A stretch of DNA of 64,000 bases from Desulfobacteraceae bacterium (GTDB taxonomy: Bacteria > Desulfobacterota > Desulfobacteria > Desulfobacterales > JAABTS01): the NCBI GenBank assembly GCA_011389735.1, contig JAABTS010000006.1:107-64106 (forward strand), written 5' to 3'. The position numbers and the translations under genes are program-made. The stretch's first letter is position 1, and every line of letters starts with the position of its first letter. Below are positions 997 to 60,574 of the stretch, piece by piece. The notes under the pieces were generated by a model. The model had not been told where the DNA came from and searched no databases. It worked only from the letters and a program-made list of their open reading frames with translations.

Positions 997-1097
997 TTTT
1001 TCAGGGATTTAATTTCACAAGGCGACGGCTCCGCGATAATGCACTGAGTATATCCGAGGGAGCAGGCCGCACGAGGAAATTAATTATCTGCAAAACG
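997..1097 (+). repeat. tier-1 palindromic MITE/REP-like element, full length
   Basis: The sequence runs ttttcagggatttaatttcacaaggcg...gaggaaattaattatctgcaaaacgg. It matches the family consensus and overlaps the last codons and stop of gspK. Confidence 0.75.
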
Positions 1098-2120
1098 GTA
1101 AAATTTATCCGTCCATTCAATGATGGAAAATTGTGTTTGTTTATCCGGTTCGATTTCAATCAACGCCCTTATCCCTCGTTTAAAATTGCTTTCATTGACG
1201 ATCCCCTCTGAAACGATCGTATAGTAAGGAGACATTTCTACGGAAATAAAAGCGTTGCACTGGCTATAAGCGTCAGTCCCGATTATTTCAACCAGTTCGT
1301 TCGATGTTCGAAAATCTTTTTCCTTCCGGTAATTCATGATGTCAGTCACCATTGATTCCGTAATTCCAGGAAGCAGGGCGATCATCTTCGAAGACGCCGC
1401 ATTGATGTTGATCGTTTCTTTCTTTGACGTTTTATTTTCATCCGCCTCTTCTTCCGGAAAGACAATGATCAGATCCTTGACGGCTCGGAACACCTCGTCC
1501 GTAACACCTCTGACCCATCGCAATTCATTCACGGATAAAAAATCCCCGTTCCTGCACTTGTATGGTTCCGGCAGAGATTGATAAAAATCGTCTTCGGCCC
1601 CGTGAAGCCTGTGGAGGGAATCTTTATCCCGCCAGTCCAGAATTGAATCCACAATGACCGCGATTTCATTTTCGTCAAGATCCGATCCGCCGAACAGTAT
1701 TTCCAGAAGTTTTCTGTTTTCCACCTGATTGATATTTATTTTCCCGCTGGTGTTTTCTATTTCAATTCTCACGCCGCCATTTGCATACGAAAATTCAGGG
1801 ATGTGGGCGTTGATCCTCCAGACTGGCGCTTCGGCGGTTTCATCATCTGTATCTTTAGGGCTCGATGGTTTGTTTTGTTCTTCAATCAATCCAGCGATCG
1901 CCTGATTGAATCCCGCATAAGCCATGTAATACGCTTCCCCATCTTCGATAAAATTTTTAGTGACAGCTATTTCAGTTCGGGTGGTTCTGCAAAATTCTCC
2001 TACGATAACCGATAATAAAGCCAGTACCCACAAAACCAGCATCAAGGCGATCCCCTTGTTTGCATTTGTATCCGGATCACTGTTGAATGCGGGCGATAAT
2101 ACATGACGGCTTTTGGTCAT
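1080..2120 (-). CDS. gspK: type II secretion minor pseudopilin GspK
   Basis: It has an N-terminal hydrophobic helix (GIALMLVLWVLALLSVIV) and an SGKININ motif. Its size (~346 aa) and its position after gspJ fit GspK. Confidence 0.85.
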   Translation of the reverse strand: MTKSRHVLSPAFNSDPDTNANKGIALMLVLWVLALLSVIVGEFCRTTRTEIAVTKNFIEDGEAYYMAYAGFNQAIAGLIEEQNKPSSPKDTDDETAEAPVWRINAHIPEFSYANGGVRIEIENTSGKININQVENRKLLEILFGGSDLDENEIAVIVDSILDWRDKDSLHRLHGAEDDFYQSLPEPYKCRNGDFLSVNELRWVRGVTDEVFRAVKDLIIVFPEEEADENKTSKKETININAASSKMIALLPGITESMVTDIMNYRKEKDFRTSNELVEIIGTDAYSQCNAFISVEMSPYYTIVSEGIVNESNFKRGIRALIEIEPDKQTQFSIIEWTDKFYRFADN

Positions 2121-2766
2121 TTTTTTCCTTCAAACATACTTTGACGGCTTTTGGCGCTTGTTGTTTTCCACCTGGGGGGGAAGCCGCCGATTCCCATTTC
2201 AGGCCGCCGTCCGCCAGGGAGTAGGTTCTGCAATAGCTAAAGGTTATCTCTTCCGCTCCGGAAAGCAGATTGTGAAAGCGATCTGAATCGGCTTCGTTTT
2301 TGAATCCGTTGGTTTTATTCGCCATGACGAGGTTTCCTATCGGCTTTTCTGAAAATAAAAGCGCGGCTTCGCCTTCCAACGCCCGTTCGATTTTATATTC
2401 GACTTCGACGCGCCCGAATGTTTCATGTCCGGGAATAAGCGGCAAAACAGATACAAACGCCATTGAATATTCATCCCCTTTGAATTCACAGGATAAATTA
2501 GCTTTTTGGGAACCGGCGGGCGTGCAGGCCGAAGCAATTTGTTGTTTGATCAGATTCAGCACAATTCGCCTCTTCTGAAGCATTTCAATGTCCCGTTCAC
2601 CTCTTTCCCACGCCCGTATTCCCGTCCTCATACCTAAAAACACCATCATCACGATAATAGATAAAATGGTTAGGGAAATCAGAAGTTCAATCAGGGTAAA
2701 TCCTCCAGACGATTTCATTCCGGACAAGACCAAACGATGACGCACGGACGATCGATTAAAAATCAT
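2077..2766 (-). CDS. gspJ: type II secretion minor pseudopilin GspJ-like
   Basis: It carries a prepilin N-methylation signal, GGFTLIELLISLTILSIIV. Its position lies between gspI and gspK. Confidence 0.75.
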   Translation of the reverse strand: MIFNRSSVRHRLVLSGMKSSGGFTLIELLISLTILSIIVMMVFLGMRTGIRAWERGERDIEMLQKRRIVLNLIKQQIASACTPAGSQKANLSCEFKGDEYSMAFVSVLPLIPGHETFGRVEVEYKIERALEGEAALLFSEKPIGNLVMANKTNGFKNEADSDRFHNLLSGAEEITFSYCRTYSLADGGLKWESAASPPGGKQQAPKAVKVCLKEKNDQKPSCIIARIQQ

Positions 2767-3284
2767 CAGTATGACGCTCCGGCGTCGAAAAACAATTCGT
2801 CTTCAGGAGACAACAATTCCGCTGTTTTCAAGGTTTGCAATTGATAACTCCGGTCCTGCGCTCCGTCGGGCCATGTGACATCGATAAGAATATCGAATAT
2901 TATCAATCCAGACTCTTTTGATTCATCTTCCTCCGACGTGTTTTTAATGGTGACGCGCCATTTGAAATCTTCGTCACATGCCCCCGACCATTCTCCTTCG
3001 GCCAGGGCCGGGTAAATCAAGATTTCCTCCATCTTTTCTTTTGCATAAAATGCGGCGCGGGTATAATCTTCGGATATTCCGACGGTTTGCAATCCCTGAG
3101 AAAACAGGTGCAAAATGATCACGAGGGAAATCGATAAAATCATCATCGCCACCAGTGTTTCAATCAGCGTGAACCCTGTTTGCAGGTCTATACGAATCCG
3201 TTCATTGTTCCTGATCTTCGATTGAGACCATTCCGGTAATGAAATCGATCCTGCACACAAATTGATTTTCGGTTTCATTATCAA
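2766..3284 (-). CDS. gspI: type II secretion minor pseudopilin GspI-like
   Basis: It carries the prepilin signal TGFTLIETLVAMMILSISL. The true start is probably downstream of the listed Met, because the listed ORF overlaps the gspH 3' end. Confidence 0.7.
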   Translation of the reverse strand: MIMKPKINLCAGSISLPEWSQSKIRNNERIRIDLQTGFTLIETLVAMMILSISLVIILHLFSQGLQTVGISEDYTRAAFYAKEKMEEILIYPALAEGEWSGACDEDFKWRVTIKNTSEEDESKESGLIIFDILIDVTWPDGAQDRSYQLQTLKTAELLSPEDELFFDAGASY

Positions 3285-3738
3285 TGATGATTACTTCGCC
3301 CCCGCTGCTAGAACCGTCCGGATAGAATAGAAATGTCGAGAATTCCTGATCGCCGTATCTTTCCAATTCCTCAGCGGCAGAGATCTCAATTCCATCGGGT
3401 GCGGGATATACTTTATAAAATTGCGGTTCATCTTCAATACCGTCCTCTGATTGATGGAATCTCATAGTGATTTTTTTTCTATCCGGTCCAATTTTACACT
3501 CAACGGTTTTTCCTGATACAACGGCTTGATTCCTTGCATATCTAAAAACAGACGTTGTATCGGCCGCCGCTGTTTTTAAGGTGGTGGAGCCGATCGAACC
3601 CGCCAATCTCGGGACGGACATGGCGAAAATAAGCCCCATGATCGTCAGAACGACCAGTAATTCGAGAAGCGTGAAACCGGAATCTTTTCCGATAACTCGA
3701 ATAATCCGTTTATATATCAATATTTTTCCAGTTAACAA
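3202..3738 (-). CDS. gspH: type II secretion minor pseudopilin GspH-like
   Basis: It carries the prepilin signal SGFTLLELLVVLTIMGLI. Its position lies after gspG. Confidence 0.7.
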   Translation of the reverse strand: MLTGKILIYKRIIRVIGKDSGFTLLELLVVLTIMGLIFAMSVPRLAGSIGSTTLKTAAADTTSVFRYARNQAVVSGKTVECKIGPDRKKITMRFHQSEDGIEDEPQFYKVYPAPDGIEISAAEELERYGDQEFSTFLFYPDGSSSGGEVIIIDNETENQFVCRIDFITGMVSIEDQEQ

Positions 3739-7001: not shown

Positions 7002-7100
7002 TTACAGCTTTCCGGGAATTAGATTTCGCTGCGTGGTAGATCCGGGATATATTCAGCGCCGGGGATTGACGCCTTGTGAAATTGAATTTCCGGAAAGCGG
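7002..7100 (-). repeat. tier-1 palindromic element, full length (reverse orientation)
   Basis: The sequence runs ttacagctttccgggaattagatttcgctgcg...gccttgtgaaattgaatttccggaaagcgg. It lies upstream of gspE. Confidence 0.7.
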
Positions 7101-8765: not shown

Positions 8766-9182
8766 TTGGGTTCCGATGACAGCTATGAGTTCACTGATTA
8801 CTCTTTAGATCAGGAGCAACTGGAATATATTGAAGAGGTGCTCGACGATGATTTGATCCAGGCCGGTGTTCACAGCGTACTATTGATTGATATGGCTGGG
8901 AATATAATCGCTCAAAAGGACAATGGACATTGTGATCATGATGTGTATTCCCTCGCAGCCCTGGCGTCGGCCAATTTCGCTGCGGTGGATACAATGGCGA
9001 AGATTGTTGGTGAAGAGGAGTTCTCACTCCTGTTTCACAAGGGAGAAAATGAAAATATACATTTCAGTAAGGTCCATTCCGAATTCCTGCTAATCACGAT
9101 TTTCGGCAAAGATGTTACGCTTGGATTGTTACGTCTCAAGGTAAATGAAGTCGTTGAAAAAATTAGGGGGCTTTGGGAATAG
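8766..9182 (+). CDS. mglB: Roadblock/LC7 (MglB-like) protein, paralog 1
   Basis: The core VHSVLLIDMAGNII...YSLAALASANFAAVDTMAKIVGE..FSLLFHKGE has a Roadblock/LC7 look. The TTG start lies 8 nt after AGGAGG, and the gene is immediately upstream of mglA. Confidence 0.8.
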   Translation: MGSDDSYEFTDYSLDQEQLEYIEEVLDDDLIQAGVHSVLLIDMAGNIIAQKDNGHCDHDVYSLAALASANFAAVDTMAKIVGEEEFSLLFHKGENENIHFSKVHSEFLLITIFGKDVTLGLLRLKVNEVVEKIRGLWE

Positions 9183-9304
9183 GCGTAATGCGAAAGTCGT
9201 TGAAAATACGCTCGAATAGTTCTCATTTCGAAGGATATAGTTATCTATCTTCCGGCGAATATGGATCCGGTGAAAACAGTAATTGTGATTAGGAGGAACC
9301 AACC

Positions 9305-9904
9305 TTGGCGTTTGTCAATATGAAAACAAAAGAAGTCCAGGCCAAGATTGTATTTTATGGGCCCGGCAGAGGGGGAAAAACCACCAACCTTGAATATGTT
9401 TATTCCAAATTCAGGGAACGTATAAAAACGGATATGGTCAGCATAAAAACGCATGGAGATCGAACGTTGTTTTTTGATTTCCTTCCCTTTGACATTGGAA
9501 AGATAATGGGATATGACGTAAAAATTCAGTTATACACCGTTCCCGGCCAGGTCAAATATAATGCGACGCGTAAACTTGTGCTAAAAGGTGTGGACGGTAT
9601 GGTGTTTGTCGCTGATTCGCAGCGTGATAAGCGGGAAAAGAATCACGAATCCTTGAAAAACTTACAAGAAAATCTTGCAGCTTATAAAAAAAGCATATTT
9701 AAGATTCCCCTGGTTCTTCAATATAATAAGCGGGATTTGAAAGAAACGCCTTTAATGCCGATCGAAATGATGGAAAAAGATTTGAACAAACAGCTCAAGG
9801 CGCCATCGTTCCCGGCAAGTGCGATTACCGGGGAGAACGTGGTGCCGACGTTAAAAAAAATTATATCGCTAACCATGGCTTCCTTGCAAAATGTAATGAA
9901 ATAG
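9305..9904 (+). CDS. mglA: MglA-family Ras-like small GTPase
   Basis: The motifs are the P-loop YGPGRGGKTTNLEYVY, RTLFFDFLP, the MglA-type G3 LYTVPGQ (Thr in place of Asp) and the G4 motif YNKRD. It aligns closely along its length with M. xanthus MglA as I recall that sequence. The TTG start is preceded by AGGAGG. Confidence 0.9.
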   Translation: MAFVNMKTKEVQAKIVFYGPGRGGKTTNLEYVYSKFRERIKTDMVSIKTHGDRTLFFDFLPFDIGKIMGYDVKIQLYTVPGQVKYNATRKLVLKGVDGMVFVADSQRDKREKNHESLKNLQENLAAYKKSIFKIPLVLQYNKRDLKETPLMPIEMMEKDLNKQLKAPSFPASAITGENVVPTLKKIISLTMASLQNVMK

Positions 9905-9916
9905 GAGGATAACGCA

Positions 9917-10336
9917 GTGGGATCCAATTATGACGACAATGTTTCTTATTCGGATTTCACCCTCGGTCACGAAGAATTGGAGACCATAGAGGAAGTCCTG
10001 CAAAAAGACCTTGTCGACGGTGGTGTTCATAGTGTATTGCTGATTGATATGGCTGGCAATATCGTCGCGAAAAAAGATAACGGCAATTGTGAACACGATT
10101 TGTATTCTCTGGCGGCTTTGGCGTCGGCGAATTTTGCGGCGGTCGATACAATGGCGAAAATTGTGGGGGAAAATGAATTCTCGCTTCTTTTTCATAAAGG
10201 GGAAGAAGAGAGCATTCATTTCAGCAAGGTAAATCCGGAATTTTTATTGATTACCATTTTCGGAAAGGAAGTCACCCTCGGGTTGCTTCGACTGAAAGTG
10301 TCCGAGGCCATAGAGAAAATCAATTCGATATGGTAA
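9917..10336 (+). CDS. mglB: Roadblock/LC7 (MglB-like) protein, paralog 2
   Basis: Its core is about four-fifths identical by eye to the 8766..9182 product. It shares the same TAGGAGGATAA RBS context and uses a GTG start. Confidence 0.8.
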   Translation: MGSNYDDNVSYSDFTLGHEELETIEEVLQKDLVDGGVHSVLLIDMAGNIVAKKDNGNCEHDLYSLAALASANFAAVDTMAKIVGENEFSLLFHKGEEESIHFSKVNPEFLLITIFGKEVTLGLLRLKVSEAIEKINSIW

Positions 10337-10474: not shown

Positions 10475-10578
10475 TATAGGTTTTCAGAAATTAAATTTCA
10501 CAAGGCGGCAAGCCTGGGATAAAGTGTTCGTATATCCTAACCGACAACGCAGTGAAATTTGATTTTTGAAAGACTATA
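10475..10578 (+). repeat. tier-1 palindromic element, full length
   Basis: The sequence runs tataggttttcagaaattaaatttcacaaggcggcaagcctgggata...tatcctaaccgacaacgcagtgaaatttgatttttgaaagactata. Confidence 0.85.
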
Positions 10579-12129: not shown

Positions 12130-12307
12130 ATCCGGAAGGTTTTTTCGAATTTTCCCACGCTAAGTCCGCTAAAGAAGGCGTGTTTGATTATCAATCCCCT
12201 AATTCCCCTAATTAATTTAGCGGAACTGTCCGCCCGGGATAATGCCGTCCGCATATCCTAATTATCCCAGGCCGACAATGCGCGCAGTGCAATTTAATCG
12301 ATTACTA
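12126..12307 (+). repeat. composite/degenerate tier-1 element
   Basis: The right half, gcccgggataatgccgtccgcatatcc...ccaggccgacaatgcgcgcagtgcaatttaatcg, matches the family. The left half is degenerate and contains cccctaatt x2. Confidence 0.55.
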
Positions 12308-16744: not shown

Positions 16745-16838
16745 CATATATTTCAGAAGGCATAAGTCAGGAGGACGCCGCTGTCCAAACCTCCCAGGCC
16801 GGTAACGAACTGAAATTGAACATCTGAAAAGCTGTAGG
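16745..16838 (+). repeat. tier-1 palindromic element (diverged)
   Basis: The sequence runs atatatttcagaaggcataagtcagg...cccaggccggtaacgaactgaaattgaacatctgaaaagctgtag. Confidence 0.6.
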
Positions 16839-22453: not shown

Positions 22454-22759
22454 CAGCGGAATGAAAAAAGAAAACAGGAGAACCAACCCTTTGGACGACT
22501 ATCTGAGATGTTTTGGCGATTTTAATGCGAAAGACAAGATATGCAGAAAATACTGCGCGTTGAATTTGCGCTGTGTTATCGAAAAAGACCAGACGGTTCA
22601 AATGGAAATATTCGAAGATATCATGTTTGGAAACGAAATACCCATGAAAATGAATTGACGAATTTGAATCAGAAAAACCGCCTGCGACGAGCGGCTTTCC
22701 ATTCCATGGGAATAAAAATTATGTATAGGTCTTCAGATATTTTATTGCATAAGGATACA

Positions 22760-22832
22760 GGGAGGAGATAACACAAGTCTCGTATATCTCCGACCGATAA
22801 CGCCCTGAAATTCGATATCTGAAAGGCTATAG
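22760..22832 (+). repeat. partial tier-1 element (B-arm plus degenerate centre)
   Basis: The sequence runs cgtatatctccgaccgataacgccctgaaattcgatatctgaaaggctatag. Confidence 0.55.
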
Positions 22833-24655: not shown

Positions 24656-24766
24656 TATTGCCTTCCGGAAATCTAATTCTACTGTGTTGTATGCCGGGGA
24701 TATAAGAATAATATTATGATTCCAGAACCGCCGCCTTGGGAATTTAATTACTGAAAACATATATAG
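24656..24766 (-). repeat. tier-1 palindromic element, full length
   Basis: The sequence runs tattgccttccggaaatctaattctactgtgttgtatgccgggga...ccttgggaatttaattactgaaaacatatatag. Confidence 0.75.
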
Positions 24767-27702: not shown

Positions 27703-27775
27703 CCTGGTGTGACAACGGAAAATATCGAAGCCATATATACTCTTTCAGAAATTAATTTCTGAAAACCTGAAGCGG
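27703..27775. repeat. partial/minimal tier-1 element
   Basis: gtgtgacaacggaaaatatcgaagccatata is followed by tttcagaaattaatttctgaaaacctgaag, in which the two terminal arms are fused. Confidence 0.5.
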
Positions 27776-29741: not shown

Positions 29742-30004
29742 TATAGTCTTCCGGAAATCAAATTATACTGTGTTGTCGGCCCGGGATAAAGGAATAGTGG
29801 GGCTTGATTCCATTTCCGGCCAATATTTTTTCACCGCAAAGGCGCAAAGACGCAAAGCATTTACTTTATTTCGCCTTTGCGAACTCTGCGTCTCTGCGCT
29901 GAGTTTATTCAGCCGGCGGCGGCGGCCGAAAGTTAGAATCAAGCCCGGAATAGTGTTATCCCGCGCCGCCGCCCTGTGAAATCAAATATTTGAAAAATCG
30001 ATAG
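29742..30004 (-). repeat. tier-1 element interrupted at its apex by a tier-2 element
   Basis: The outer arms are tatagtcttccggaaatcaaattatactgtgttgtcggcccgggata and ttatcccgcgccgccgccctgtgaaatcaaatatttgaaaaatcgatag. Confidence 0.85.
29800..29946. mobile_element. tier-2 MITE-like insertion (147 bp) with perfect 11-bp TIR and 9-bp TSD
   Basis: The TIR is gggcttgattc / gaatcaagccc. It is flanked by ggaatagtg at 29791-29799 and again at 29947-29955. The cargo is a set of gcaaag-rich hairpins. Confidence 0.8.
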
Positions 30005-30375
30005 AACAAATTCCCATTTTTTCGGCGATATTGACCGCTTTTCAGATATTACATTTCAGTAACGAATTTTGAATTCGCATGGGGCCGCGATTTAAAAAAT
30101 CGCCTCGCATTCAGACCGAACAATTTATAAGGCGGACTGGAAAAACAGGAAGGTGCTTGAACTTATGCTGTTTTTAACCGTTTGACGGAAATTCGATACA
30201 AACCGCTGCGTCAAAACCTCTGCTTCGATAGGAAAATAGTATACCCGATAGTAGGATATTCCTAATCAGACAATACACGGCCCGCCCCATTGTATTTTTG
30301 ACGGCGTCCGTATAATTATAACAATAAAGGATCGGGTATATTAATAAACCAAAAATTAAAGAAGGGAGTGCGCAA

Positions 30376-31215: not shown

Positions 31216-31489
31216 ATATTGGTTTACAGGAATTAGATTTCACAAAACGGCAGGTCTGGAATCATACTATTAATAGGGCTTGGTTCTAAGATCGGCCGGA
31301 GCGCCAGGGTTGCAAACCCCCTCTGAGCGGGTCTCTTGCTCTGAGCGGGTTTGTAACCCGCGACTTACGAAGCGCGATCTCCGGCTTTGGCGCTCCAACC
31401 CGAAAAATTATGGCCGAAATTAGAACCAAGCCCCTATTCGTATATCCCATGCCGACAACACCGTGAAATTTGATTTCCGGAAGGCCATA
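31216..31489 (+). repeat. tier-1 element interrupted at its apex by a tier-2 element
   Basis: The outer arms are ggtttacaggaattagatttcacaaaacggcaggtctggaatcatactatt and cgtatatcccatgccgacaacaccgtgaaatttgatttccggaaggccata. Confidence 0.85.
31276..31433. mobile_element. tier-2 MITE-like insertion (158 bp) with perfect 14-bp TIR and a degenerate 9-bp TSD
   Basis: The TIR is gggcttggttctaa / ttagaaccaagccc. The flanks are ctattaata (31267-31275) and ctattcgta (31434-31442), identical at 7 of 9 positions. The cargo differs from the 29800 copy. Confidence 0.75.
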
Positions 31490-31490
31490 T

Positions 31491-31540
31491 TCGTATCTTC
31501 CAGGCTGGCAATGCAGGAAAATTGAATTTCCGAAAGGCTT
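31491..31540 (+). repeat. solo B-arm of the tier-1 element
   Basis: The sequence is cgtatcttccaggctggcaatgcaggaaaattgaatttccgaaaggct. Confidence 0.5.
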
Positions 31541-31602: not shown

Positions 31603-31708
31603 CTATAGGTTTTCAGAAATTAAATTTCACAAAACGGCAGGCCCGGAATCATACTATTCGTATATCCCATGCCGACAACATCGTGAAATTTAATTTCTGG
31701 AAGGCTTT
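31603..31708 (+). repeat. tier-1 palindromic element, full length, uninterrupted
   Basis: It is near-identical to the outer arms of the 31216 copy: ctataggttttcagaaattaaatttcacaaaacggcaggcccggaatcatactattcgtatatcccatgccgacaacatcgtgaaatttaatttctggaaggc. Confidence 0.9.
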
Positions 31709-33456: not shown

Positions 33457-33577
33457 ATACAGCCTTCCGGAAATTAAATTTCGCTGTGTTGTCGGCCCGG
33501 GAGATACGAATAGTATGTTCCCGTAGTATGATCCCGGGCCTTACGCCTTGTGGCTTTTAATTTCTGAAAACCTATAG
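33457..33577 (-). repeat. tier-1 palindromic element, full length (extra ~12 bp at the apex)
   Basis: The sequence runs atacagccttccggaaattaaatttcgctgtgttgtcggcccgggagatacgaatagtatgttcccgtagtatgatcccgggcc...cttttaatttctgaaaacctatag. Confidence 0.85.
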
Positions 33578-37424: not shown

Positions 37425-39182
37425 ATGAATACAAATCCTGCGGTAAGCACTCCGGTATCAGAAAAAATAAAACAGATCGCCATCGCAAAACGCGATATTC
37501 TGACGCTGCCGTCTGAAAAGGCGCTTTCAGCTATTTTAGAATTTTCCCAGCCGGCCGCTCTTGTTCAGTCTTTTTCCGAAGGCGATTTTTATTTTCTCGT
37601 CCACGATATCGGTCCGGACGACGCCCTGGAATTGTTGGCGTTGGCGTCTTTTGACCAGTGGCGCTATATCCTTGATCTTGAAATGTGGGACCGGGACAGA
37701 ATCAACAACCTTCCGGCCACAAGATGGCTTTCAAGACTTTTTCACGCCGACCCGAACCGTTTTGTCTACTGGTTTTTGCATGACGGCATGGATATTGTCG
37801 ATTTTTACCTGTTTAAAAACGTCATTGTTCAGGCCAGGGAACATGATCAAGATCCTTCAGATTTTGGCGATGGTTATGAGACTCTTGACGATTCACTCTA
37901 TTTTAATATTTTCGATTCGCCGCAAGATGATTTTTCCTCTGATGACCGGGAACGCAAAAAACAGTTTTTACTCCAATTTTTTAAACAATTATCATCCTGG
38001 GACCATATCGTTTACCAGAATAAGCTGTTCGAATTTCCTGCGATAATGCCCGCAGAATTCGAAGAAGAATTATACAGGCTCAGAAATGTCCGCCTTGCGG
38101 AAAAAGGATTCAGTGTTCGAGACGAGGCGATGGGCGTTTATCAACCGATATCGTCCGGCCGGATGGATCAATACGCAAGGAGGAAGCCCGCCAAATATGA
38201 AAGCGCCTCGCCTCAAGCCCTATCTTTATATTCCACCGGTGTTATGGATCCGGACACGCTTTTTGTCCGATCATTGCAAGCCGTCGAAACGGAAGATATT
38301 CTGGCTGAACTGCAATCGGAATTTGCAAGCCTGTGCAATCAAATTGTTTCTGCGGACGGGGCGCCTGTCCGGAATCGGGACGATCTTTCGAAGGTGGTCA
38401 AAAAAGTATGTGGTTATATCAATATCGGGTTGGAAACAGCGGCCGGAATATGGGAGCAAACGCCGGATAACTTAGCGGCTTCGTTCCTTAAACAATATCT
38501 GTTGCAGGCGGTTTTCCAATTAGGGTACGGCCGGGCGGTCGAAATCAAACAACGCGCTCAAAAATGGAAAAAAGGTTCATGGACGGAAAAAAACCATCTG
38601 CCTTTGAGTTTTTGGAGCGAAGAACGGCTAGGCGTACTTGGCGGCCTTTTATTGAAGCGCCCCCTTTATTTCGATAACTATGAAACAGGCGTGTTGTATC
38701 GCGAGTTTGAAAGCATTGCGGATATCGAAAAAACCGAAACCACCTTGAACCGGATTATGGCTTGCGACCGGCTTTTGTCGTATATGGATTTTGATTTGAA
38801 TCCGGAAGTATCCCGCCTGCTGGCTGCGAACGGGCTGCTGAACGAAAAAAATCTCATTTTAACCCTCTGGGCGCGTCGCTCCCTGAATTTGGAACCTGTA
38901 GCGGATTATATCGATTTATCGATGTTCGCCGGTTTTTTCGACGCGTTATGGGAAAAAGAAGTAGCTTATCCTAAAATTCGAGATGAAGCGAAAGAGGATT
39001 TCTTTTTATGGATCAGGGAATCTCTGCCCGCCGGTTCCAGGGATGACATCGACACGCTGGAACCGGTGTTCATGGATTTGTTTGAAGAGGTGGAAAACGA
39101 ACTCGGCAATATCGGCGGCGGTGATATAGAACCGAAATATGTTCAATTGTTCCTTCTAAAGCCAACCTTAAACGAGCCATAG
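37425..39182 (+). CDS. conserved hypothetical protein (585 aa)
   Basis: The long ORF has even composition. I cannot securely recognise a family. Its stop codon is supplied by the terminus of the adjacent repeat. Confidence 0.5.
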   Translation: MNTNPAVSTPVSEKIKQIAIAKRDILTLPSEKALSAILEFSQPAALVQSFSEGDFYFLVHDIGPDDALELLALASFDQWRYILDLEMWDRDRINNLPATRWLSRLFHADPNRFVYWFLHDGMDIVDFYLFKNVIVQAREHDQDPSDFGDGYETLDDSLYFNIFDSPQDDFSSDDRERKKQFLLQFFKQLSSWDHIVYQNKLFEFPAIMPAEFEEELYRLRNVRLAEKGFSVRDEAMGVYQPISSGRMDQYARRKPAKYESASPQALSLYSTGVMDPDTLFVRSLQAVETEDILAELQSEFASLCNQIVSADGAPVRNRDDLSKVVKKVCGYINIGLETAAGIWEQTPDNLAASFLKQYLLQAVFQLGYGRAVEIKQRAQKWKKGSWTEKNHLPLSFWSEERLGVLGGLLLKRPLYFDNYETGVLYREFESIADIEKTETTLNRIMACDRLLSYMDFDLNPEVSRLLAANGLLNEKNLILTLWARRSLNLEPVADYIDLSMFAGFFDALWEKEVAYPKIRDEAKEDFFLWIRESLPAGSRDDIDTLEPVFMDLFEEVENELGNIGGGDIEPKYVQLFLLKPTLNEP

Positions 39183-39290
39183 GTTTTCAGACAGGAAATA
39201 ATTTTATAGGCCCGCGATTCTGAGGTCATACTGTTCGAATATCGAACTCCCAGGCCTGCAACACAGCGAAATTTTATTTCCGGAAGACGT
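39178..39290 (+). repeat. tier-1 palindromic element (diverged)
   Basis: The sequence runs cataggttttcagacaggaaataatttt...cccaggcctgcaacacagcgaaattttatttccggaagacg. Confidence 0.65.
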
Positions 39291-39923: not shown

Positions 39924-40026
39924 AATTTGCTCCGAAGTTTAACCGATGTGATTGACAAAATATTGGTGAATCCGGAAAACAACTTTCGATTCCGGGTGAA
40001 AAGATGTTCGGAATCGGTCGGCGTTC

Positions 40027-40133
40027 ATACAGTTTTTCAGGAATTAAATTTCACAAAGCGGAAGTTCTTGACAATACTGTTCTTATATCCCGAGCCGACA
40101 ACGAAGAGAAGTTTGATTCCCGGAAGACTATAG
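40027..40133 (+). repeat. tier-1 palindromic element, full length
   Basis: The sequence runs atacagtttttcaggaattaaatttcacaaagcgg...tatatcccgagccgacaacgaagagaagtttgattcccggaagactatag. Confidence 0.8.
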
Positions 40134-40238
40134 CCGCGACATTCGGCTGTAACCAGCTATCTTCAATTACATAAGCGCCCCTGGACAGGGTTCTCCCGAA
40201 TTTTTGCCGATTCGGCGCTCGTCCAAAGTTCGAGATGG

Positions 40239-41459: not shown

Positions 41460-41500
41460 TGATCATTCCTCCGCTGTTCTATTCCACCTTGACAGTGACA

Positions 41501-42109: not shown

Positions 42110-42113
42110 AGCG

Positions 42114-42740: not shown

Positions 42741-42748
42741 CTGATTAT

Positions 42749-42856
42749 TATTAGGTTTTACAGAAATTAAATATCACGAATCGGAGGGTCCGGGATAATA
42801 CTATTAGTATATCCCGGACCGACAATGCAGTGATATTGAATTTTTGGAAGACCATA
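42749..42856 (+). repeat. tier-1 palindromic element, full length, inside the nqr operon (nqrC-nqrD spacer)
   Basis: The sequence is attaggttttacagaaattaaatatcacgaatcggagggtccgggataatactattagtatatcccggaccgacaatgcagtgatattgaatttttggaagaccata. Confidence 0.9.
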
Positions 42857-42871
42857 TCAAAGGCCCTTTTT

Positions 42872-44780: not shown

Positions 44781-46126
44781 TATCCGTTGATTTCCTTGTA
44801 ATACGCCGCTTTTGCGGTCTTCAGGGTGTCCGATAAATCGATTTTGGACGGGCAAACATAGGTGCATGCGCCGCATTCAACGCAATCCAGCAATCCATGA
44901 AGGAGCGATTCTTCTATTTCATCGGCCGCAATGCATTTCATGGCGTACTGCGGCAGAATATCCACCGGACACACCCGCGCGCAATATCCGCAGTTGATGC
45001 AGGCTCGTTTTTCACCGTGAAAATCGCAATCATAATCCTTTTCCCGCTTGTTGAACACTGAAAAAAAGGCCCGGGATCGGCTGGGTTTTGAAAATCCCGG
45101 CCGGATGAAACCTAAGAACGATTTTCCGGCTGCTTCAGGCAATACGGTCAGGGAACGGTCGTAAAATCCGAGATGCGATTCGGGAGACGCCATGAGCCCG
45201 TTAAACACGCCCCCGGCGATAAACCTCGTTCCATTGTTTCCCGGTTCGATTTTGGCGATATGCGACAGAGGGGAGCCGATCCGGGCGACGACATGTTCCG
45301 GACCGGCGATTGAGCCGCCGCCCAGCGCAACGGTCCGAGTCAGCGGGTACTCGCCGGTTTTCAGAAACCTTCCCAAACGGATTACATCCTGCCCGTCAAT
45401 ATACCAGGCCTGATTTTCTTCCGGAGATTCCTTGATATAATACAAAAACACGCCCGGGTCGCCGGCTGGATAATCGCCGGAAACGGTATGGGTCACTTTG
45501 GTTTTGAGCAGGCTCAACACCGGGGTGTCGTCATCGCCGGAAACGGCGACATGAACCCTGGGCGCCAATCGATATAGAGCGGAAAGACCGAACCGGAAAA
45601 CGTCTTCGGCCCCTTTCAAATACACTTCCGGCAGGGGCTGAAAAGGTTCCGCTCCGTTAAGGGTCACGATGATGGCGGGAGGCGTAACATCGGGGTCCGC
45701 TATCATCCGGAAGGGCAATGAACGGAACGCGGGCCACAATCCGCCGCCGGATAGGAGCGAAACCAGCTCATCTCTGGATATTTGACCGATCCGGTCTTCG
45801 CTGAGCGGTTCAAACGATTTTTGTTCCTCATTGGAATCCAGTTCGATTAAAATTTCCTTGATCACCCGCCGGGGGCCGTATGTGATCTTCGAAACCGTTC
45901 CGCCGCCGGGGGATAGAAATTTAAAACGAGGTTCGCGTTTATCCCTGTATAACAGCGATCCGATCTTGACCGAATCCCCGGTTTTGACGCTCAAGCGAGG
46001 TTTTATAGCCGGGAACCTGTACGGCGACACGCCGACATGAGTTGGATCGCCAAGAATCCGAACGGTTTTTGAGGGGGTTCCGGATATGTCGAGCCTGAGC
46101 CCCTTATTGATAGAGACTGATTTCAT
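44780..46126 (-). CDS. nqrA: NQR subunit A retaining an RnfC-type 2x[4Fe-4S] ferredoxin motif pair
   Basis: The N-terminus MKSVSINKGLRLDISGTPSK...VKTGDSVKIGSLLYRDK and the mid-region are NqrA-like. The C-terminus has CINCGYCARVCP and CVECGACTYVCP. Confidence 0.88.
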   Translation of the reverse strand: MKSVSINKGLRLDISGTPSKTVRILGDPTHVGVSPYRFPAIKPRLSVKTGDSVKIGSLLYRDKREPRFKFLSPGGGTVSKITYGPRRVIKEILIELDSNEEQKSFEPLSEDRIGQISRDELVSLLSGGGLWPAFRSLPFRMIADPDVTPPAIIVTLNGAEPFQPLPEVYLKGAEDVFRFGLSALYRLAPRVHVAVSGDDDTPVLSLLKTKVTHTVSGDYPAGDPGVFLYYIKESPEENQAWYIDGQDVIRLGRFLKTGEYPLTRTVALGGGSIAGPEHVVARIGSPLSHIAKIEPGNNGTRFIAGGVFNGLMASPESHLGFYDRSLTVLPEAAGKSFLGFIRPGFSKPSRSRAFFSVFNKREKDYDCDFHGEKRACINCGYCARVCPVDILPQYAMKCIAADEIEESLLHGLLDCVECGACTYVCPSKIDLSDTLKTAKAAYYKEING

Positions 46127-46149
46127 GAGCCATTTTTTTGATTTAGCCT

Positions 46150-46180
46150 TTCATAAAATCGAATTTCTGAAAGACTATAG
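46150..46180 (+). repeat. solo terminal arm of the tier-1 element
   Basis: The sequence is ttcataaaatcgaatttctgaaagactatag. Confidence 0.45.
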
Positions 46181-46379
46181 TTGTTAATGGGGATGATTTT
46201 CAACAAATCTCCGATCCGTATGTATAAAAATTCTAAAAAGCGGTTAATCGATAATTTTTGTATAAATTTCAAATCGACTGTAAAATGTCAATTGATTTCT
46301 TGCAAAAAGCTTTAGAAAATGGGATAGGGACGTCCGTATGGCTTTGATATTGATAGGAGTGGGTTTTTGTACATAGGTT

Positions 46380-46504
46380 GGGCTTGGTTCTAACTTCGGC
46401 CACGACCACCGGTTGAATAAGCTCACCGCAGAGACGCAAAGTTCGCAAAGGTTAAATAAATCAAATGCTTTACGTTCTTTCCGCCTTTGCGGTGAAAAAA
46501 TATT
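46380..46504. mobile_element. one-ended (truncated) tier-2 element, same cargo type as the 29800 copy
   Basis: gggcttggttctaacttcggcc...gcagagacgcaaagttcgcaaagg...cgcctttgcggtgaaaaaa is the reverse complement of the 29800-29946 cargo by eye. No second TIR is present. Confidence 0.65.
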
Positions 46505-46586
46505 ATCGTGAAAATACATTTTCATGAAAGGGGGAACGATTCGATCATGAAGTTTTGCCCCCTGTAACATCGAGGACGGATCATTT

Positions 46587-48503
46587 ATGCAGATCGCAGA
46601 TCGAATATGGATACCCGAAGGAACGAGAGCGTTTCTGTTCGATATGGACGGCGTACTTCTGGATACGCTGACCTTTGATTTGATCCATTGCGCCCGGCTG
46701 CTCGAAAAATATACGGGAAAACACATTCCCCTTTCCAAAAGGTTTATCAGATCGTTATTCGCCTACCATCCCCCGGAATTTTGGCGGCGGATTCTGGATT
46801 TCGCCGAGCGTGAGCATCAGGTTCAAAACACCCAAAAACACCTGAACGCAATTCTCGAGGAATACAACGGGCTTCGAAATTCACAGTCCTATTCGCTCAA
46901 TCCTGGAATTCGGGAGATCCTCGATACGCTGAAATCACTTAATATCAAAACCGCATGCGTTTCCAACACGCCGATTGCAGATGTAGAGCGAATTTTGGCC
47001 CAATCCCGTTTAATCGATGATTTCGCTGTAATCGTGGGCAATGATATCGCGGATCTTGAAAAAAAACCGGCTCCGGACACCTATCTATATGCGGCCGAAG
47101 TCCTTGACGTGGAACCGGCCCGATGCGTCGTGATAGAAGATTCTCTGCTCGGCGCCGAAGCAGGCCGCCGCGCCGGATGTTTTACCATCGGCGTGGCCAC
47201 CGGGAGCGCCGATTTTGAAATCCTTGAAAAATCCGGTTTTACGGATTGCGTGTACACGTCTTTCGATACAAACCGCATTGGCGTCACATTCGGAGATGTC
47301 ACACAAAAAAAAATCCACACTCCGAATGAATTCGTGAGCCATATGATAGAGCACGTCGCCTGGCGGATTTGTGTTTCCATTCATATTGAATGGCGGTCCA
47401 ACGACTGGTTCGAATTGGGGAAAAATCTCGGAGGGCGAATCGGGGCGTTGGGATTTTACAGGAATGAAGGCGCGGCCATAGGGATGATCGACGACGGCTG
47501 CGCTGAAGCCGCAATTAAACGAACGGCTTACCCCGAATGCGTTATTGAAACCACGGCGGGCATGTCTCGCGACTGGTTTATGAGGCTCCGATGTGAACAA
47601 CTGCCAGGCGGCGAACCTCTGGCCGATTTAATCAACGGTCTGGCTCACGGCCTTTCCGCCTCTGTTAGGGTTCGTGTCCCCATGATCGAAGATCCCCATC
47701 ATTCCTGGGAAGGCGTTTTCAGATCGATTGGAATCGCCCTTGGCCGGATGGTTACGCCTGAACCTCCACAGATTGACACCAGCGAGGTCTCTGATGAACC
47801 GGACATTTCCAGGGGCGCCGTCAGCATTCTTGAACGATCCGCCCATTTCGCCGAAGCAATTCGAACAACTGCGGAAAGCCGGGTAAAGGTGAAGGTCGAT
47901 GTAAATGGATATGTTCCGGCGGTTTGCAAATTCGAAGTTTCGCCGTCCATCAAAGTTGATGGAGCGGCGGAATTGCTGGATATCCTGTCCGGATCAGCGG
48001 ATTTCGCCATCAATGTGGAATTTAAGGCGGAAGCGCTGAGTTCCAGCCACGTAGTTCTGGAAGATATCGGCCTTTTGCTGGGCAGAGCCCTCAAGGAAAT
48101 CCTGATCGTTCGAATGACTCATTTCGGCGTGAACGGCGCTGGATCGAGCGTAGCTTCGATTCAGGATTTCAATGACTTTCCCATACGGGCCGCAGTAAGC
48201 GTAGAAGGCCGAAAATTCTGGAAATTTGTTCCGTTCGACACCTCCTATGACCGGTTCCGGGAAAATTTTTTAATCGGCCATACACTCGATAACGGATTGT
48301 TCTCCGAAGATCTGGACGATTTTATCGATGGTCTGACCAATGGGATGGACGCTGCGGCGGTCTTTCATGTGGCGCACCACGTCGAACCGGACGCAGGATG
48401 GCGAATGACGTTCGATCACCTGGGACGCGCTCTGAAAGAAGCTTTTTTCTGTAATCCGTATCGCAAAGGCGTGCCGCCGGGAGTCAAGGCGACCTTGGAA
48501 TAG
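46587..48503 (+). CDS. HAD-superfamily phosphatase fused to two tandem imidazoleglycerol-phosphate-dehydratase-like domains
   Basis: The N-terminus has HAD motif I (FLFDMDGVLLDT) and VIEDSLLGAEAGRRAG. Two IGPD-like repeats follow. They contain FVSHMIEHVA, EDPHHSWEGVFRSIGIALG, SSHVVLEDIGLLLGRALKE and AHHVEPDAGWRMTFDHLGRALKEA, ending in an IGPD-like GVPPGVKATLE. All of this was read by eye. Confidence 0.6.
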   Translation: MQIADRIWIPEGTRAFLFDMDGVLLDTLTFDLIHCARLLEKYTGKHIPLSKRFIRSLFAYHPPEFWRRILDFAEREHQVQNTQKHLNAILEEYNGLRNSQSYSLNPGIREILDTLKSLNIKTACVSNTPIADVERILAQSRLIDDFAVIVGNDIADLEKKPAPDTYLYAAEVLDVEPARCVVIEDSLLGAEAGRRAGCFTIGVATGSADFEILEKSGFTDCVYTSFDTNRIGVTFGDVTQKKIHTPNEFVSHMIEHVAWRICVSIHIEWRSNDWFELGKNLGGRIGALGFYRNEGAAIGMIDDGCAEAAIKRTAYPECVIETTAGMSRDWFMRLRCEQLPGGEPLADLINGLAHGLSASVRVRVPMIEDPHHSWEGVFRSIGIALGRMVTPEPPQIDTSEVSDEPDISRGAVSILERSAHFAEAIRTTAESRVKVKVDVNGYVPAVCKFEVSPSIKVDGAAELLDILSGSADFAINVEFKAEALSSSHVVLEDIGLLLGRALKEILIVRMTHFGVNGAGSSVASIQDFNDFPIRAAVSVEGRKFWKFVPFDTSYDRFRENFLIGHTLDNGLFSEDLDDFIDGLTNGMDAAAVFHVAHHVEPDAGWRMTFDHLGRALKEAFFCNPYRKGVPPGVKATLE

Positions 48504-48603
48504 TGTCCGGCTTCGGGCGCGGGTCTTCAGGCGGCCCCTTGAATTTGCAGATCTTAGGATTGATTGGTAAACCCAAAGCAAGCCGGGCGCTTAACTCAGA
48601 CGG

Positions 48604-48706
48604 CTATTGTCTTCAGGATATTAAATTGCACTGCATTGTCGGCCCGGGATATACGAACATTATGATACCGGGCCTGCCGCCTTTTGAGGTTAAATGTGTT
48701 CCTGAG
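48604..48706 (-). repeat. tier-1 palindromic element, full length
   Basis: The sequence is ctattgtcttcaggatattaaattgcactgcattgtcggcccgggatatacgaacattatgataccgggcctgccgccttttgaggttaaatgtgttcctgag. Confidence 0.8.
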
Positions 48707-48753
48707 CGCCCAAAAACGGATATAACCAGTAGCTTTTGTTCCTGAACGCGCTT

Positions 48754-49449
48754 TCACCTGACGATACATGATTCCACCCAGGGATCGGCGATGGATTTGA
48801 AATATAAAAGATCGTTTTCGTGATACCGCTGTTCAGGAACGGTAAATTGCTCCGGATCGAGAACGGTTTCGGTTCTCAGTTTTTGAAGCGCGTATAATTT
48901 CGCTCCGGAGATAGTCCGGGCGATACCGTCCACCGCCCGGGCGTCCACCAGAGATCGCATACAAGTGGTTTTAAATTCATAAGGAAGGCCGGATTCCATT
49001 ATAATTCCAACGCTGTTAAATACGTCTTCCGTGGAGGCGTTGGATTTTATTAGCGATCCATAATGTTCGGGATCTGTTTTAATGTCCATGGCGATATAAT
49101 CGACAAGATTTTGTTGAATCAGAAATTCGAGCGCATGGGGGCGGCTGCCGTTGGTGTCCAGCTTTACCGGATATCCGAGATGCTTTAAACGGCGGCAAAG
49201 ATCCGGAAGATCCTCGTGGAGCGTGGGTTCTCCGCCGGAAATGACCACGCCGTCCAGAAATGAACGCCGCTCCTTCAAAAAGTCGTATATGCCCGCTTCC
49301 GATATGCAGGATTCACAAGGCGCGCATTTCACCAGTTGAGGGTTGTGGCAGTAAGGGCATTTAAAATTGCATCCCGAAAGAAACAGAACGCAGCAAATCT
49401 TGCCCGGATAATCGATCATTGAATTTTTTTGTACGCCGCCGATGATCAT
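48754..49449 (-). CDS. nrdG: anaerobic ribonucleotide reductase activating protein (radical SAM)
   Basis: It has the CNFKCPYCHN cluster motif and GGEPTL. The gene lies downstream of nrdD. Confidence 0.88.
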   Translation of the reverse strand: MIIGGVQKNSMIDYPGKICCVLFLSGCNFKCPYCHNPQLVKCAPCESCISEAGIYDFLKERRSFLDGVVISGGEPTLHEDLPDLCRRLKHLGYPVKLDTNGSRPHALEFLIQQNLVDYIAMDIKTDPEHYGSLIKSNASTEDVFNSVGIIMESGLPYEFKTTCMRSLVDARAVDGIARTISGAKLYALQKLRTETVLDPEQFTVPEQRYHENDLLYFKSIADPWVESCIVR

Positions 49450-55870: not shown

Positions 55871-55975
55871 TAAAGGTTTTCAGAAATTGAATTTCACAAG
55901 GCCGCGCGCCTTAAATCATAATAATCGTAGATCTCAGGCCGGCAACCCGTGAAAATTATTTTCTGAAAGTCCATA
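55871..55975 (+). repeat. tier-1 palindromic element, full length
   Basis: The sequence runs taaaggttttcagaaattgaatttcacaaggccgcg...caggccggcaacccgtgaaaattattttctgaaagtccata. Confidence 0.8.
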
Positions 55976-56077: not shown

Positions 56078-56237
56078 CAACCGTTATCCGTTCTATTGAC
56101 AATCGATTTGAAAAACGTTTAAAAAATATGCGAATGATCAGGAAGATGTCAATGTTTTTACACTAAAACATATTGACTAATTCGGTAAATCTGACTACCA
56201 TAAATTGATTCGGCCGGAGGTTTTAGAAAAATCAGAT

Positions 56238-56338
56238 CTTTCGGAAATCGATTTTCACCGGGTTGTTTGCCTGGAGTATTAACAACCGCATTATCCCGGG
56301 TCCTTATTTTGTGAAATTGAATTTCTGAAAACCTGTAG
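56238..56338 (-). repeat. tier-1 palindromic element, full length
   Basis: The sequence runs tctttcggaaatcgattttcaccgggttgtttgcctgg...ttatcccgggtccttattttgtgaaattgaatttctgaaaacctgtag. Confidence 0.75.
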
Positions 56339-57830: not shown

Positions 57831-58194
57831 CATAAAACGATTATAATCCCATTCCGGTTGTTTTAACACGTCCTTATATTTTAAGGCGCAAAATTCCCCG
57901 AATTTTGAAAAACCGAAATCGGATCGTAAGGGAAGTTACTGGAAATAAACTATCCAATATTACGCTGAATTTTGGTTCGTATTTCGTGTTGTGTCAAGAG
58001 CGTGCATATTGAAATATTCACCTCTTGACGCAATACGGAATACGGGGTCAAAAGGCAAGCAAGATTAGAAGCTAATTTTCTGTGACTTCCCTAATATAAA
58101 GGCTTTCCGGATAAATACGCACGGCGATTTCCACCGCCGGTATAGGATGCGCATTATTCGAAAGTTTTCCACATATTAAACGGGTTTATCAGAT

Positions 58195-58270
58195 ATTATG
58201 TTTCAGAAGGTGATGCATATTGTATCCTCCAACCGATAACGCACTGAAAGTTAATATCTAAAAGGCTATA
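58195..58270 (+). repeat. short tier-1 element
   Basis: The sequence is attatgtttcagaaggtgatgcatattgtatcctccaaccgataacgcactgaaagttaatatctaaaaggctatag. Confidence 0.6.
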
Positions 58271-58357
58271 GCCTTCCAGAAATTGAATTTTACCGTGTGT
58301 TGTCGGACTGGTATATACGAACAGTCTTGTGAAATTGAATTTCTGAAAACCAATATA
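58265..58357 (-). repeat. tier-1 element abutting the previous copy through a shared CTATAG
   Basis: The sequence is ctatagccttccagaaattgaattttaccgtgtgttgtcggactggtatatacgaacagtcttgtgaaattgaatttctgaaaaccaatata. Confidence 0.75.
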
Positions 58358-59545: not shown

Positions 59546-59605
59546 ATCGCTGTTCCCGGCCAATATTCCGATTTGACCAACGATGCTCGCTGTCAAGGAG
59601 GCGTT

Positions 59606-60298
59606 ATGAATATCATATGTGATCATTGTCAAGGCAAGATTAAAATTCCCGATGAGCGGGTGCCGAAAGACAAGGCTTTTTCCATTACATGTCCGAAATG
59701 TAAAGGGAAGATCTCCATCAATCCTGAGGGTGAAGGCCAGGATTCTTCGGAATCGTCTTCTCCGCCTAAATCCGAGAAAAAGGGCGACGGCATGATCGGG
59801 GATATGGCGTCGATGAACGGCGGCGGGGAACAGGCGCCTGAAAACCCTTTTGACTTTTTGGAAGAAGGCGCCGAAACCGCCATGGTTTGTGAAACCGACG
59901 GCGTCATACGAAATAAAATAAAGATTCATTTGGAAAGAATGAAATACTACGTTTCGGAACCCGAAAACGCTCGAGAAGCACTCAAACAAATGCGGTTTCA
60001 CGACTACGATATTATCATCATAAATGAATTGTTCGGCACCCGTGATCCGGATTCCAATCATATTTTAAAATACCTCAGCCAGCTTAAAATGACCACCCGG
60101 AGAAATATTTTCGTGACGCTTTTAACGGAAAGATCCAAGTCAATGGATCCAATGACCGCTTTTAATCGTAGCGTAAATCTGGTGATCAATTTAAAGGATA
60201 TCGACAATGTGGATAAAATCCTGAAACAAGGGCTGACCGATAACGAAACCTTTTATCGCGTATACAAGGAGATGCTGGCGAAACTCGGACGGTTCTGA
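59606..60298 (+). CDS. MJ0042-type zinc-ribbon protein with a C-terminal receiver-like (probably pseudo-receiver) domain
   Basis: The N-terminus is MNIICDHCQGKIKIP...ITCPKCKGKISI. The C-terminus has an alternating beta/alpha pattern in which DIIIINELF sits where receivers have the phospho-Asp. The ATG follows AAGGAGG. Confidence 0.55.
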   Translation: MNIICDHCQGKIKIPDERVPKDKAFSITCPKCKGKISINPEGEGQDSSESSSPPKSEKKGDGMIGDMASMNGGGEQAPENPFDFLEEGAETAMVCETDGVIRNKIKIHLERMKYYVSEPENAREALKQMRFHDYDIIIINELFGTRDPDSNHILKYLSQLKMTTRRNIFVTLLTERSKSMDPMTAFNRSVNLVINLKDIDNVDKILKQGLTDNETFYRVYKEMLAKLGRF

Positions 60299-60357
60299 TG
60301 ACGGACGAAACTGGTACGATCTTTGCCCTCGGGTCGTCATTCCGCGGTAAAAACTTG

Positions 60358-60574
60358 TATAGCCTTCCGGAAATCAAATTGCACTGCGTTGTCGGCCCGG
60401 GGATATACGAATATTATTATGTTGAATTTTGAATGTTGGATGTTGAATGTTGGATGTGAGTCCCCTCATTTAGCATTTAACATTTAGCATTCAACATAAA
60501 TAATTTAGCATTCAACACAAAATGCAACAATCTCGGGCGTGGCTCCTTGTGAAATTCAATTTCTGAAAACATGC
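60358..60574 (-). repeat. tier-1 element interrupted at its apex by a tier-3 hairpin element
   Basis: The outer arms are tatagccttccggaaatcaaattgcactgcgttgtcggcccggggatatacgaatatt and atctcgggcgtggctccttgtgaaattcaatttctgaaaac. Confidence 0.85.
60421..60528 (+). mobile_element. tier-3 hairpin insertion (TGAATGTTGGATGT / CATTTAGCATT(T/C)AA tandem units)
   Basis: gttgaattttgaatgttggatgttgaatgttggatg-tgagtcccct-catttagcatttaacatttagcattcaacat forms a stem of about 31 bp. The ends are gttgaattttg / caaaatgcaac. Confidence 0.65.

Follow-up and report, generated by a model that had tools for sequence, protein, structure and literature searches.

The 64,000-nucleotide stretch analysed here (the window; positions 107 to 64,106 of contig JAABTS010000006.1, assembly GCA_011389735.1 of a Desulfobacteraceae bacterium) carries the same palindromic element of about 100 bp again and again between its genes, raising the question of what the element is and how it spread. 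Starting from the best copy (31604-31710), an iterated nhmmer profile over the window returned 26 segments between positions 995 and 60570. Repeat finding added arm-only remnants at 27743 and 46151, and a fuzzy search for terminal inverted repeats (TIRs) added a solo arm at 30037-30059. The arm motif GAAATTAAATTTCAC was matched 19 times with at most two mismatches against 0.67 expected, and the inner-stem motif GGCCCGGGATA 15 times with at most one mismatch against 1.64 expected. After split copies were merged we found about 22-26 elements (full, split, half or arm-only), one per 2.5-2.9 kb, which agrees with the initial annotation of at least two dozen copies at roughly one per 2.5 kb. Together they account for about 2.4 kb, or 3.8% of the window; of its intergenic DNA (9.7 kb) they take up about 25%. 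The same annotation had them in almost every intergenic gap, and this was overstated: of the 35 gaps that measure 40 bp or more, 17 contained a copy, as did 16 of the 22 that measure 130 bp or more, and two further gaps contained arm remnants only. Its account of their placement held, since no copy lay inside a coding sequence, the ends of gspK and of the DUF6178 gene were overlapped, and both intra-operon positions (between gspK and a gspL-like frame, and nqrC-nqrD, where the element makes up 102 bp of the 131-bp spacer) were recovered. Convergent gaps contained a copy more often (5/6) than divergent gaps (2/6), and the bias towards gene 3' ends is real. Both orientations occurred, as had been reported, and a by-eye tally against flanking genes gave 8 sense and 5 antisense copies (8/6 with the copy at 995), so that no marked orientation bias was seen. 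Short (<300 bp), non-coding and multi-copy, the element has the generic features of a MITE (miniature inverted-repeat transposable element).

We analysed the flanks of 42 full copies, taken from both the window and metagenomes. The dinucleotide TA stood directly outside the left end in 35 of the 42 copies; at the right end this was so in 37. One dinucleotide further in, the two ends co-varied, reading TA..TA or CA..TG, and the outer TA was constant: five metagenome copies (L021, L068b, L092, L100 and L103) read TA-CAG...CTG-TA and the others TA-TAG...CTA-TA, and the inner-dinucleotide position was U-A 25 times and C-G 6 times in the table of pairs. Since the inner dinucleotide changes in concert at both ends and the outer TA stays the same, the former appears to be the element's own, inherited from a master copy, and the latter to be derived from the target and re-created at each insertion. 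Read by eye from the listed flanks, base -1 was C in about 17 and A in about 14 cases and base +1 was G in about 16 and T in about 9, and since these bases are mostly C/A and G/T the preferred target is probably the palindrome (C/A)TA(G/T). The termini had been described as ending in the palindrome CTATAG; the flank statistics correct this, as CTATAG resolves to C-TA + TAG.. at one end and ..CTA + TA-G at the other, that is, target TA plus element end, and the element itself ends in YAG/CTR. An abutting pair at 58182-58353 has GGC-TA-TA-GCC at its junction and ACC-AA-TA-TA at its far end, which suggests that one copy inserted into the terminal TA of the other.

TA flanks combined with co-varying ends look like the signature of TA target duplication of the kind made by IS630/Tc1-mariner transposases. 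IS630 and ISY100 insert almost exclusively at TA and duplicate it (PMC2170065), where a preference of IS630 for CTAG is also cited from Tenzen and Ohtsubo (1991). Two hallmarks of the IS630/Tc1-mariner group were found in the flank statistics, namely a TA target with a 2-bp duplication and a CTAG-like palindromic target preference; the target duplication expected of a MITE was likewise read from flank statistics rather than from an empty-site comparison. From these statistics and from knowledge of the family we infer that TA is duplicated, that the element is mobile and that it belongs with IS630. A TA-duplicating MITE is in our judgement the probable identity of the element, and for an enzyme specifically of IS630 type the odds are slightly better than even. 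The non-coding copies of about 100 bp, with their 25-nt TIRs YAGRTTTYCRGAAATTNAATTTCAC, would be bound by a DDE transposase supplied in trans, most likely from the IS630/Tc1-mariner superfamily, which would excise the element, insert it at TA within a preferred (C/A)TA(G/T) and duplicate the TA. Insertions within genes would be purged, so that only intergenic ones survive, and effects on the host would be a by-product and not the cause of abundance. In operon spacers such as nqrC-nqrD, a transcript hairpin of about -60 kcal/mol could serve as a 3' barrier or an RNase III site.

The consensus computed from the profile, TAG(T/G)TTTTCAGAAATTAAATTTCAC..GGCCCGGGATAATACTATTCGTATATCCCGGGCC..GTGAAATTTAATTTCTGRAAGGC, was nearly identical to the one first read by eye. 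Outermost stand TA and then the 25-nt arm, with the complementary arm and TA at the other end; inside follow an asymmetric internal loop (5' side AAGGCGGCA, 3' side GACAACGCA), a GC-rich inner stem, GGCCCGGGAT/ATCCCGGGCC in the window copies, and an AT-rich apex, AATACTATTCGTAT. Per-position conservation of the TIRs was 84-100% except at the centre of a 6-N-6 dyad, and 88-92% of outer-arm cells were paired, as expected of the TIRs of a MITE. The dyad, GAAATT-N-AATTTC, is present in every arm (for example at 31616-31628 and 31685-31697) and its centre is the least conserved arm position (53-55% versus 84-100% for its neighbours), which suggests a putative site for a dimeric DNA-binding protein. 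The plus-sense RNA folded at -59.7 kcal/mol (z = -11.4), the opposite strand at -52.9 kcal/mol and the DNA at -33 kcal/mol. At arm positions 5 and 8 the left arm has T and the right arm mostly C, in each of the two lineages studied, and the energy difference between strands arises because of the two G.U pairs from these positions.

We then looked at copies outside the window. A scan of a genome collection for both arms found the element in a single metagenome-assembled genome (MAG), DYRK01, which is labelled Desulfatirhabdium butyrativorans; the threonyl-tRNA synthetase (ThrRS) gene beside two of its copies is 84% identical to Desulfonema magnum ThrRS. A metagenome scan for one arm returned 120 loci, about 45 of them with true copies. 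Most metagenome copies formed one homogeneous subfamily, TATAGATTTTCAGAAATTGAATTTCACAAGGAAGCAGGGAGGAGATCATACTTTTCGTATATCTCCGACCGATGACGCAGTGAAATTCAATTTCTGGAAGTCTATA, with the inner stem GG(G/T)(A/C)GGAGAT/ATCTCCGACC and a mean pairwise identity of 89% versus 64% among the window copies. Judged by this homogeneity the metagenome and DYRK01 subfamily appears young, whereas the burst in the window is old, with diverged copies, many of them truncated and three interrupted. Furthermore, the same arms bounded unrelated interiors, of about 100 bp in L015, L025, L032, L046 and L058 (read from the sequences), 66 bp in L037 and 294 bp in L093, suggesting that the family comprises several families with different interiors, grouped by their TIRs. 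About 59 kb from five related Desulfobacterales loci contained neither a copy nor an arm: 15 kb from the closest retrievable relative (L004, syntenic in the dnaA region), 1.8 kb from a second dnaA contig (L005), 22 kb from D. magnum, 12.8 kb from strain HSG2 and 7.4 kb from DZCT01. That the ends are shared while the cargo differs, and that the distribution is patchy and lineage-specific, points to a transposase recognising the ends.

Several observations weigh against a TA-duplicating, IS630-mobilised MITE. An autonomous element bearing these TIRs was sought and not found in the window, in about 130 loci and in 117 open reading frames (ORFs) of element-bearing loci. The scans covered convergent TIR pairs 250-4000 bp apart, TA-YAG...CTR-TA pairs with at least 16/24 complementary bases, and solo TIRs with different interiors, and gave only pairs of separate MITE copies and two unrelated insertion sequences (ISs). 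Pfam detected no transposase among the 40 window ORFs scanned and no recurrent transposase family among the 117. The two ISs nearby are of other types. One, at 790-1992 of L107, is about 1 kb long with a 276-aa transposase and palindromic ends TATAGGTGGCAAGTTGGGTTA...TAACCCAACTTGCCACCTATA that are unrelated to the MITE arms save for TATAGGT; it lies in adjacent direct copies on a contig that also carries the MITE. The other, at 1-1561 of L018, consists of IS3-family orfA/orfB, has its own TG..CA-type ends about 100 bp from a solo MITE arm and may have inserted into a MITE copy. Neither was retained as a partner.

In addition, no filled/empty site pair was seen among overlapping metagenome contigs, the ThrRS locus pair and three more distant relatives. 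The overlapping contigs all had the copy. L004 was free of copies at the syntenic sites (its spacer matching the site of the copy at 16747..16834 is 44 bp) and yet too diverged for base-level comparison. L002 and L127, whose ThrRS are 97% identical, share the upstream copy; their similarity (L002 2336-2480, L127 3417-3463) ends a little beyond the stop codon of thrS, with different genes downstream. In L002 it is lost about 50 bp upstream of a truncated downstream copy, and a rearrangement breakpoint may lie near the element. The inner stem also changes with compensation between subfamilies, which a plain TIR-only model does not require. Finally, TA or TNA duplications occur in some IS5-family subgroups too, so that the assignment to IS630 is not exclusive.

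This last point leads to a possible origin of the MITE in a different DDE family, such as a subgroup of the IS5 family that duplicates TA or TNA in CTAG-like targets. A family cannot be named from TA-flanked TIRs and a CTAG-like target alone, and no partner element was found. We nevertheless regard this as unlikely: the duplication looks strictly 2 bp and strictly TA, a CTAG preference is documented for IS630, and the YAG ends resemble Tc1, pogo and mariner repeats, which start with CAG or TAG.

A different question is whether the host keeps the element, as a terminator, mRNA stabiliser, RNase III site or protein-binding site whose usefulness would explain the abundance. The very stable hairpin, the enrichment at gene 3' ends, the tolerance of copies within operons, the conserved dyad in each arm and promoter-like hexamers in some copies all agree with this. 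To examine the hairpin, pairs were specified by hand in 44 aligned copies and partners were shuffled; RNAalifold had given no consensus structure on the gapped alignment. Across the copies 84.3% of cells were paired versus 80.4 +/- 0.4% in shuffles, and 21 pairs were changed on both sides versus 12.3 +/- 2.0, most of this covariation signal lying between subfamilies. Within the window copies, the arms were 79.6% paired versus 75.9% shuffled and the inner stem 67.7% versus 65.6%, the latter not significant (321 of 2000 shuffles reached the observed value), so that pairing in these old copies is near the shuffled baseline. Mismatches of G.T (47) equalled those of A.C (49), which rules out strand-specific RNA selection. 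The copies end in ...GGCTATA with no T-tract after them, no terminator-like site coincided with a copy in 29001-49000, and promoter-like hexamers were not enriched (28 versus 25 expected), ruling out a general role as terminator or promoter. Because the pairing excess is small, G.T equals A.C, and neither an orientation bias nor an enrichment of terminators or promoters was seen, individual copies appear to decay close to neutrally; no selection to keep the hairpin is detectable in single window copies. Complementarity appears to count in the copies that propagate and not for the host at each site. With many copies truncated or interrupted, and close relatives lacking the element at syntenic sites, host selection is an improbable cause of the abundance.

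We consider it equally improbable that palindromy itself is needed for propagation, through a hairpin or cruciform intermediate and an enzyme other than a classical IS630-type transposase, or that the dyads form a dispersed network of binding sites for a dimeric protein from the host or encoded by an element. The compensated inner-stem change between subfamilies and an apex repeatedly hit by other mobile elements would fit the propagation variant.

Very unlikely, in our view, is a REPIN-like hairpin that moves as single-stranded DNA through a repetitive extragenic palindromic (REP)-associated tyrosine transposase (RAYT, a Y1 HUH enzyme) with no target duplication, TATAG then being the recognition or cleavage motif. 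Its strong whole-element hairpin (z about -11), the compensatory inner-stem differences between subfamilies given above and the strictly extragenic location speak for this, and the ends (A)TAG..CTA(T) recall the GTAG..CTAC of REPs. The element is also like REP/REPIN sequences in being extragenic, very abundant and hairpin-forming with compensatory stem changes. However, REPs are palindromes that are short and GC-rich, carry a GTAG-type motif and make no target duplication, whereas here the TIRs are long and AT-rich, the TA flanks are symmetric and a RAYT was not found. Neither half is a self-palindromic, GC-rich REP unit (such units being 20-40-nt GC-rich imperfect palindromes with a conserved 5' tetranucleotide), each AT-rich arm having only its 6-N-6 AT dyad. 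Symmetric TA flanks and a palindromic target preference fit DDE duplication, and interiors up to 294 bp long that are unrelated and form no hairpin lie between the same TIRs. The 40 window ORFs scanned gave no Y1 transposase, and none was recurrent in the 117 ORFs of element-bearing loci. Of the initial label 'MITE/REP-like', the MITE part thus stands, on the long AT-rich TIRs with TA on both sides, and the REP part does not. The element is neither a REP/REPIN nor a member of any Rfam family (no match at gathering; E<1 gave only sub-threshold generic hairpin matches to miRNA models), and it is neither an IS200/IS605-derived palindrome, as TIRs and flanks are symmetric, nor an intrinsic terminator, as its hairpin has no T-tract. 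IS200/IS605-derived palindromes have asymmetric ends, lack TIRs and target duplications, and insert 3' of a fixed tetra- or pentanucleotide.

The TA-duplicating MITE that we favour has close analogues elsewhere. In size, TA-flanked TIRs, hairpin transcripts, intergenic and intra-operon sites and copy density, the element appears to work like Correia/NEMIS and RUP. Correia ends probably read TATAG..CTATA too. The Correia/NEMIS elements of Neisseria are 107 or 155 bp long with TIRs of about 24 bp, a terminal TA, target duplication and hundreds of copies, lie next to or within operons, and are co-transcribed as long hairpins cleaved by RNase III (PMC2229807). Unlike them, the present element has a Desulfobacterales host and a different interior, and no IHF site or strong outward promoter was shown. 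RUP of Streptococcus pneumoniae, 107 bp long, is a MITE that has been linked to IS630-Spn1 through its TIRs and its TA target (PMC2229807). Like RUP, the element is a non-coding palindrome with many intergenic copies and insertion at TA; unlike RUP, it belongs to another phylum with no sequence relation, its contiguous TIR pairing is 25 nt (listed as 9 bp in RUP) and no partner corresponding to IS630-Spn1 was found. Chunjie, a MITE from Geobacter uraniireducens, is described as inserting into an operon without breaking it (Genetics 2008), at 178-235 bp and with 38 full and 57 partial copies. It shares with our element the place within an operon and a host from a related group (former Deltaproteobacteria) and is set apart by its size description.

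The remark in the initial annotation that no described family could be recognised was borne out. A distant blastn search of a plasmid collection gave no match, and no paper describing the element turned up in a literature search. The single match in viral contigs lay inside a coding region and was dismissed as chance. The element is an undescribed MITE family of a well-known kind of selfish DNA and not a new kind of system, so that the known workings of such elements are unchanged. It adds a MITE family to the Desulfobacterales, for which the literature search turned up no described MITE. At its local density, metagenome assemblies can break at the repeats and gene calling can be distorted; a gene takes its stop codon from one copy, and spurious ORFs overlap others. 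With old, decaying copies here and a young, homogeneous subfamily elsewhere, the family lends itself to following the burst and decay of MITEs in nature. The copies of the window are listed in Table 1.

Table 1. Copies and remnants of the element along the window, with the one gene listed beside them.
Positions	Strand	Feature	Evidence
994..1098	+	Degenerate full copy, gspK to gspL-like spacer	nhmmer E=1e-15, T2SSK (Pfam)
1080..2120	-	gspK; ends within copy 994..1098, last codons overlapped	
7005..7100	-	Full copy downstream of gspE, TA flanks lost	nhmmer
10477..10576	+	Full copy, TATAG..CTATA ends	nhmmer E=2e-21
12210..12298	+	Partial copy, inner stem kept, arms degenerate	nhmmer E=8e-9
16747..16834	+	Copy with degenerate left arm, between rpsR and DUF2232 gene	nhmmer
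22726..22829	+	Full copy downstream of dnaA, inner stem GGAGAT/ATCTCC as in metagenome subfamily	nhmmer
24658..24761	-	Full copy, dnaA-uvrA divergent spacer	nhmmer
27735..27768	.	Arm-only mini remnant TTTCAGAAATTAATTTCTGAAAACCTG	repeat finding
29744..29996	-	Copy split at apex by nested unrelated 147-bp MITE (29800-29946)	nhmmer
30037..30059	+	Solo arm	fuzzy TIR search
31219..31487	+	Copy split at apex by nested MITE 31276-31433, same family as 29800-29946	nhmmer
31488..31540	+	Right half-copy, starts at apex	nhmmer
31606..31707	+	Best-preserved copy	nhmmer E=6.5e-27
33460..33576	-	Full copy with 14-bp apical duplication, upstream of PEPCK gene	nhmmer
39180..39290	+	Full copy; terminal TAG (39180-39182) is the stop codon of the DUF6178 gene (37425-39182)	nhmmer
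40030..40130	+	Full copy downstream of nqrF, left end CAG	nhmmer
42753..42854	+	Full copy within nqr operon (nqrC-nqrD), arm and stem changes compensated	nhmmer
46151..46181	.	Solo arm upstream of nqrA	repeat finding
48607..48696	-	Copy with degenerate left arm	nhmmer
55873..55973	+	Full copy downstream of proC	nhmmer
56234..56335	-	Full copy, CAG..CTG ends	nhmmer
58182..58268	+	Internally deleted copy, abuts 58269..58353	nhmmer
58269..58353	-	Internally deleted copy, junction GGC-TA-TA-GCC with neighbour	nhmmer
60360..60572	-	Copy split at apex by ~110-bp AT-rich insertion	nhmmer

The interruptions of three of about 22 copies fall in one and the same place, which makes the apex look like a hot spot for insertion. 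Two of these copies had another MITE, unrelated to the element, nested exactly in the apical loop (29800-29946 and 31276-31433, the former flanked by a perfect 8-bp direct repeat, ACTATTCC); this MITE is about 147-158 bp long and has TIRs GGGCTTGRTTCTAA. A one-ended copy of this second MITE lies upstream of nqrA, from 46380 to about 46500. The third interruption, at 60412-60530, is about 110 bp of AT-rich sequence with GTTGAATGCTAAAT-like repeats and complements.

The window itself is ordinary chromosomal DNA, as judged by Pfam on its ORFs. It carries a type II secretion cluster (gspE, F and K), fusA, rpsF, the DUF2232 gene, dnaA, uvrA, the phosphoenolpyruvate carboxykinase (PEPCK) gene, proC, an F-type ATPase a-subunit gene with an AtpI-like gene, pilT-like ATPase genes and a cluster of six nqr genes, of which nqrC (FMN_bind), nqrD (Rnf-Nqr) and nqrF are supported by Pfam; rplI, dnaB and hflX were assigned by synteny with L004. 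Among 5.8 billion proteins the closest DnaA was 70% identical, and the named matches were from Desulfobacterales or Desulfobacteraceae MAGs; because the nearest DnaA is only this similar, the source lineage appears isolated and Desulfobacterales-like. A gspL-like minus-strand frame with a GIDIG actin-like motif, open past the start of the window, follows gspK, and the plus-strand ORF at 619-984 is probably spurious. At 8766-10336, two Roadblock/LC7 paralogues (71% identical over 300 nt) surround a small Ras/Arf-like GTPase gene and form an MglA/MglB-like module. Finally, a canonical intrinsic terminator (GC hairpin, then T7) stands 3' of uvrA at 27810-27850, next to the arm-only remnant, and real terminators of this genome, as seen there, differ in look from the element.

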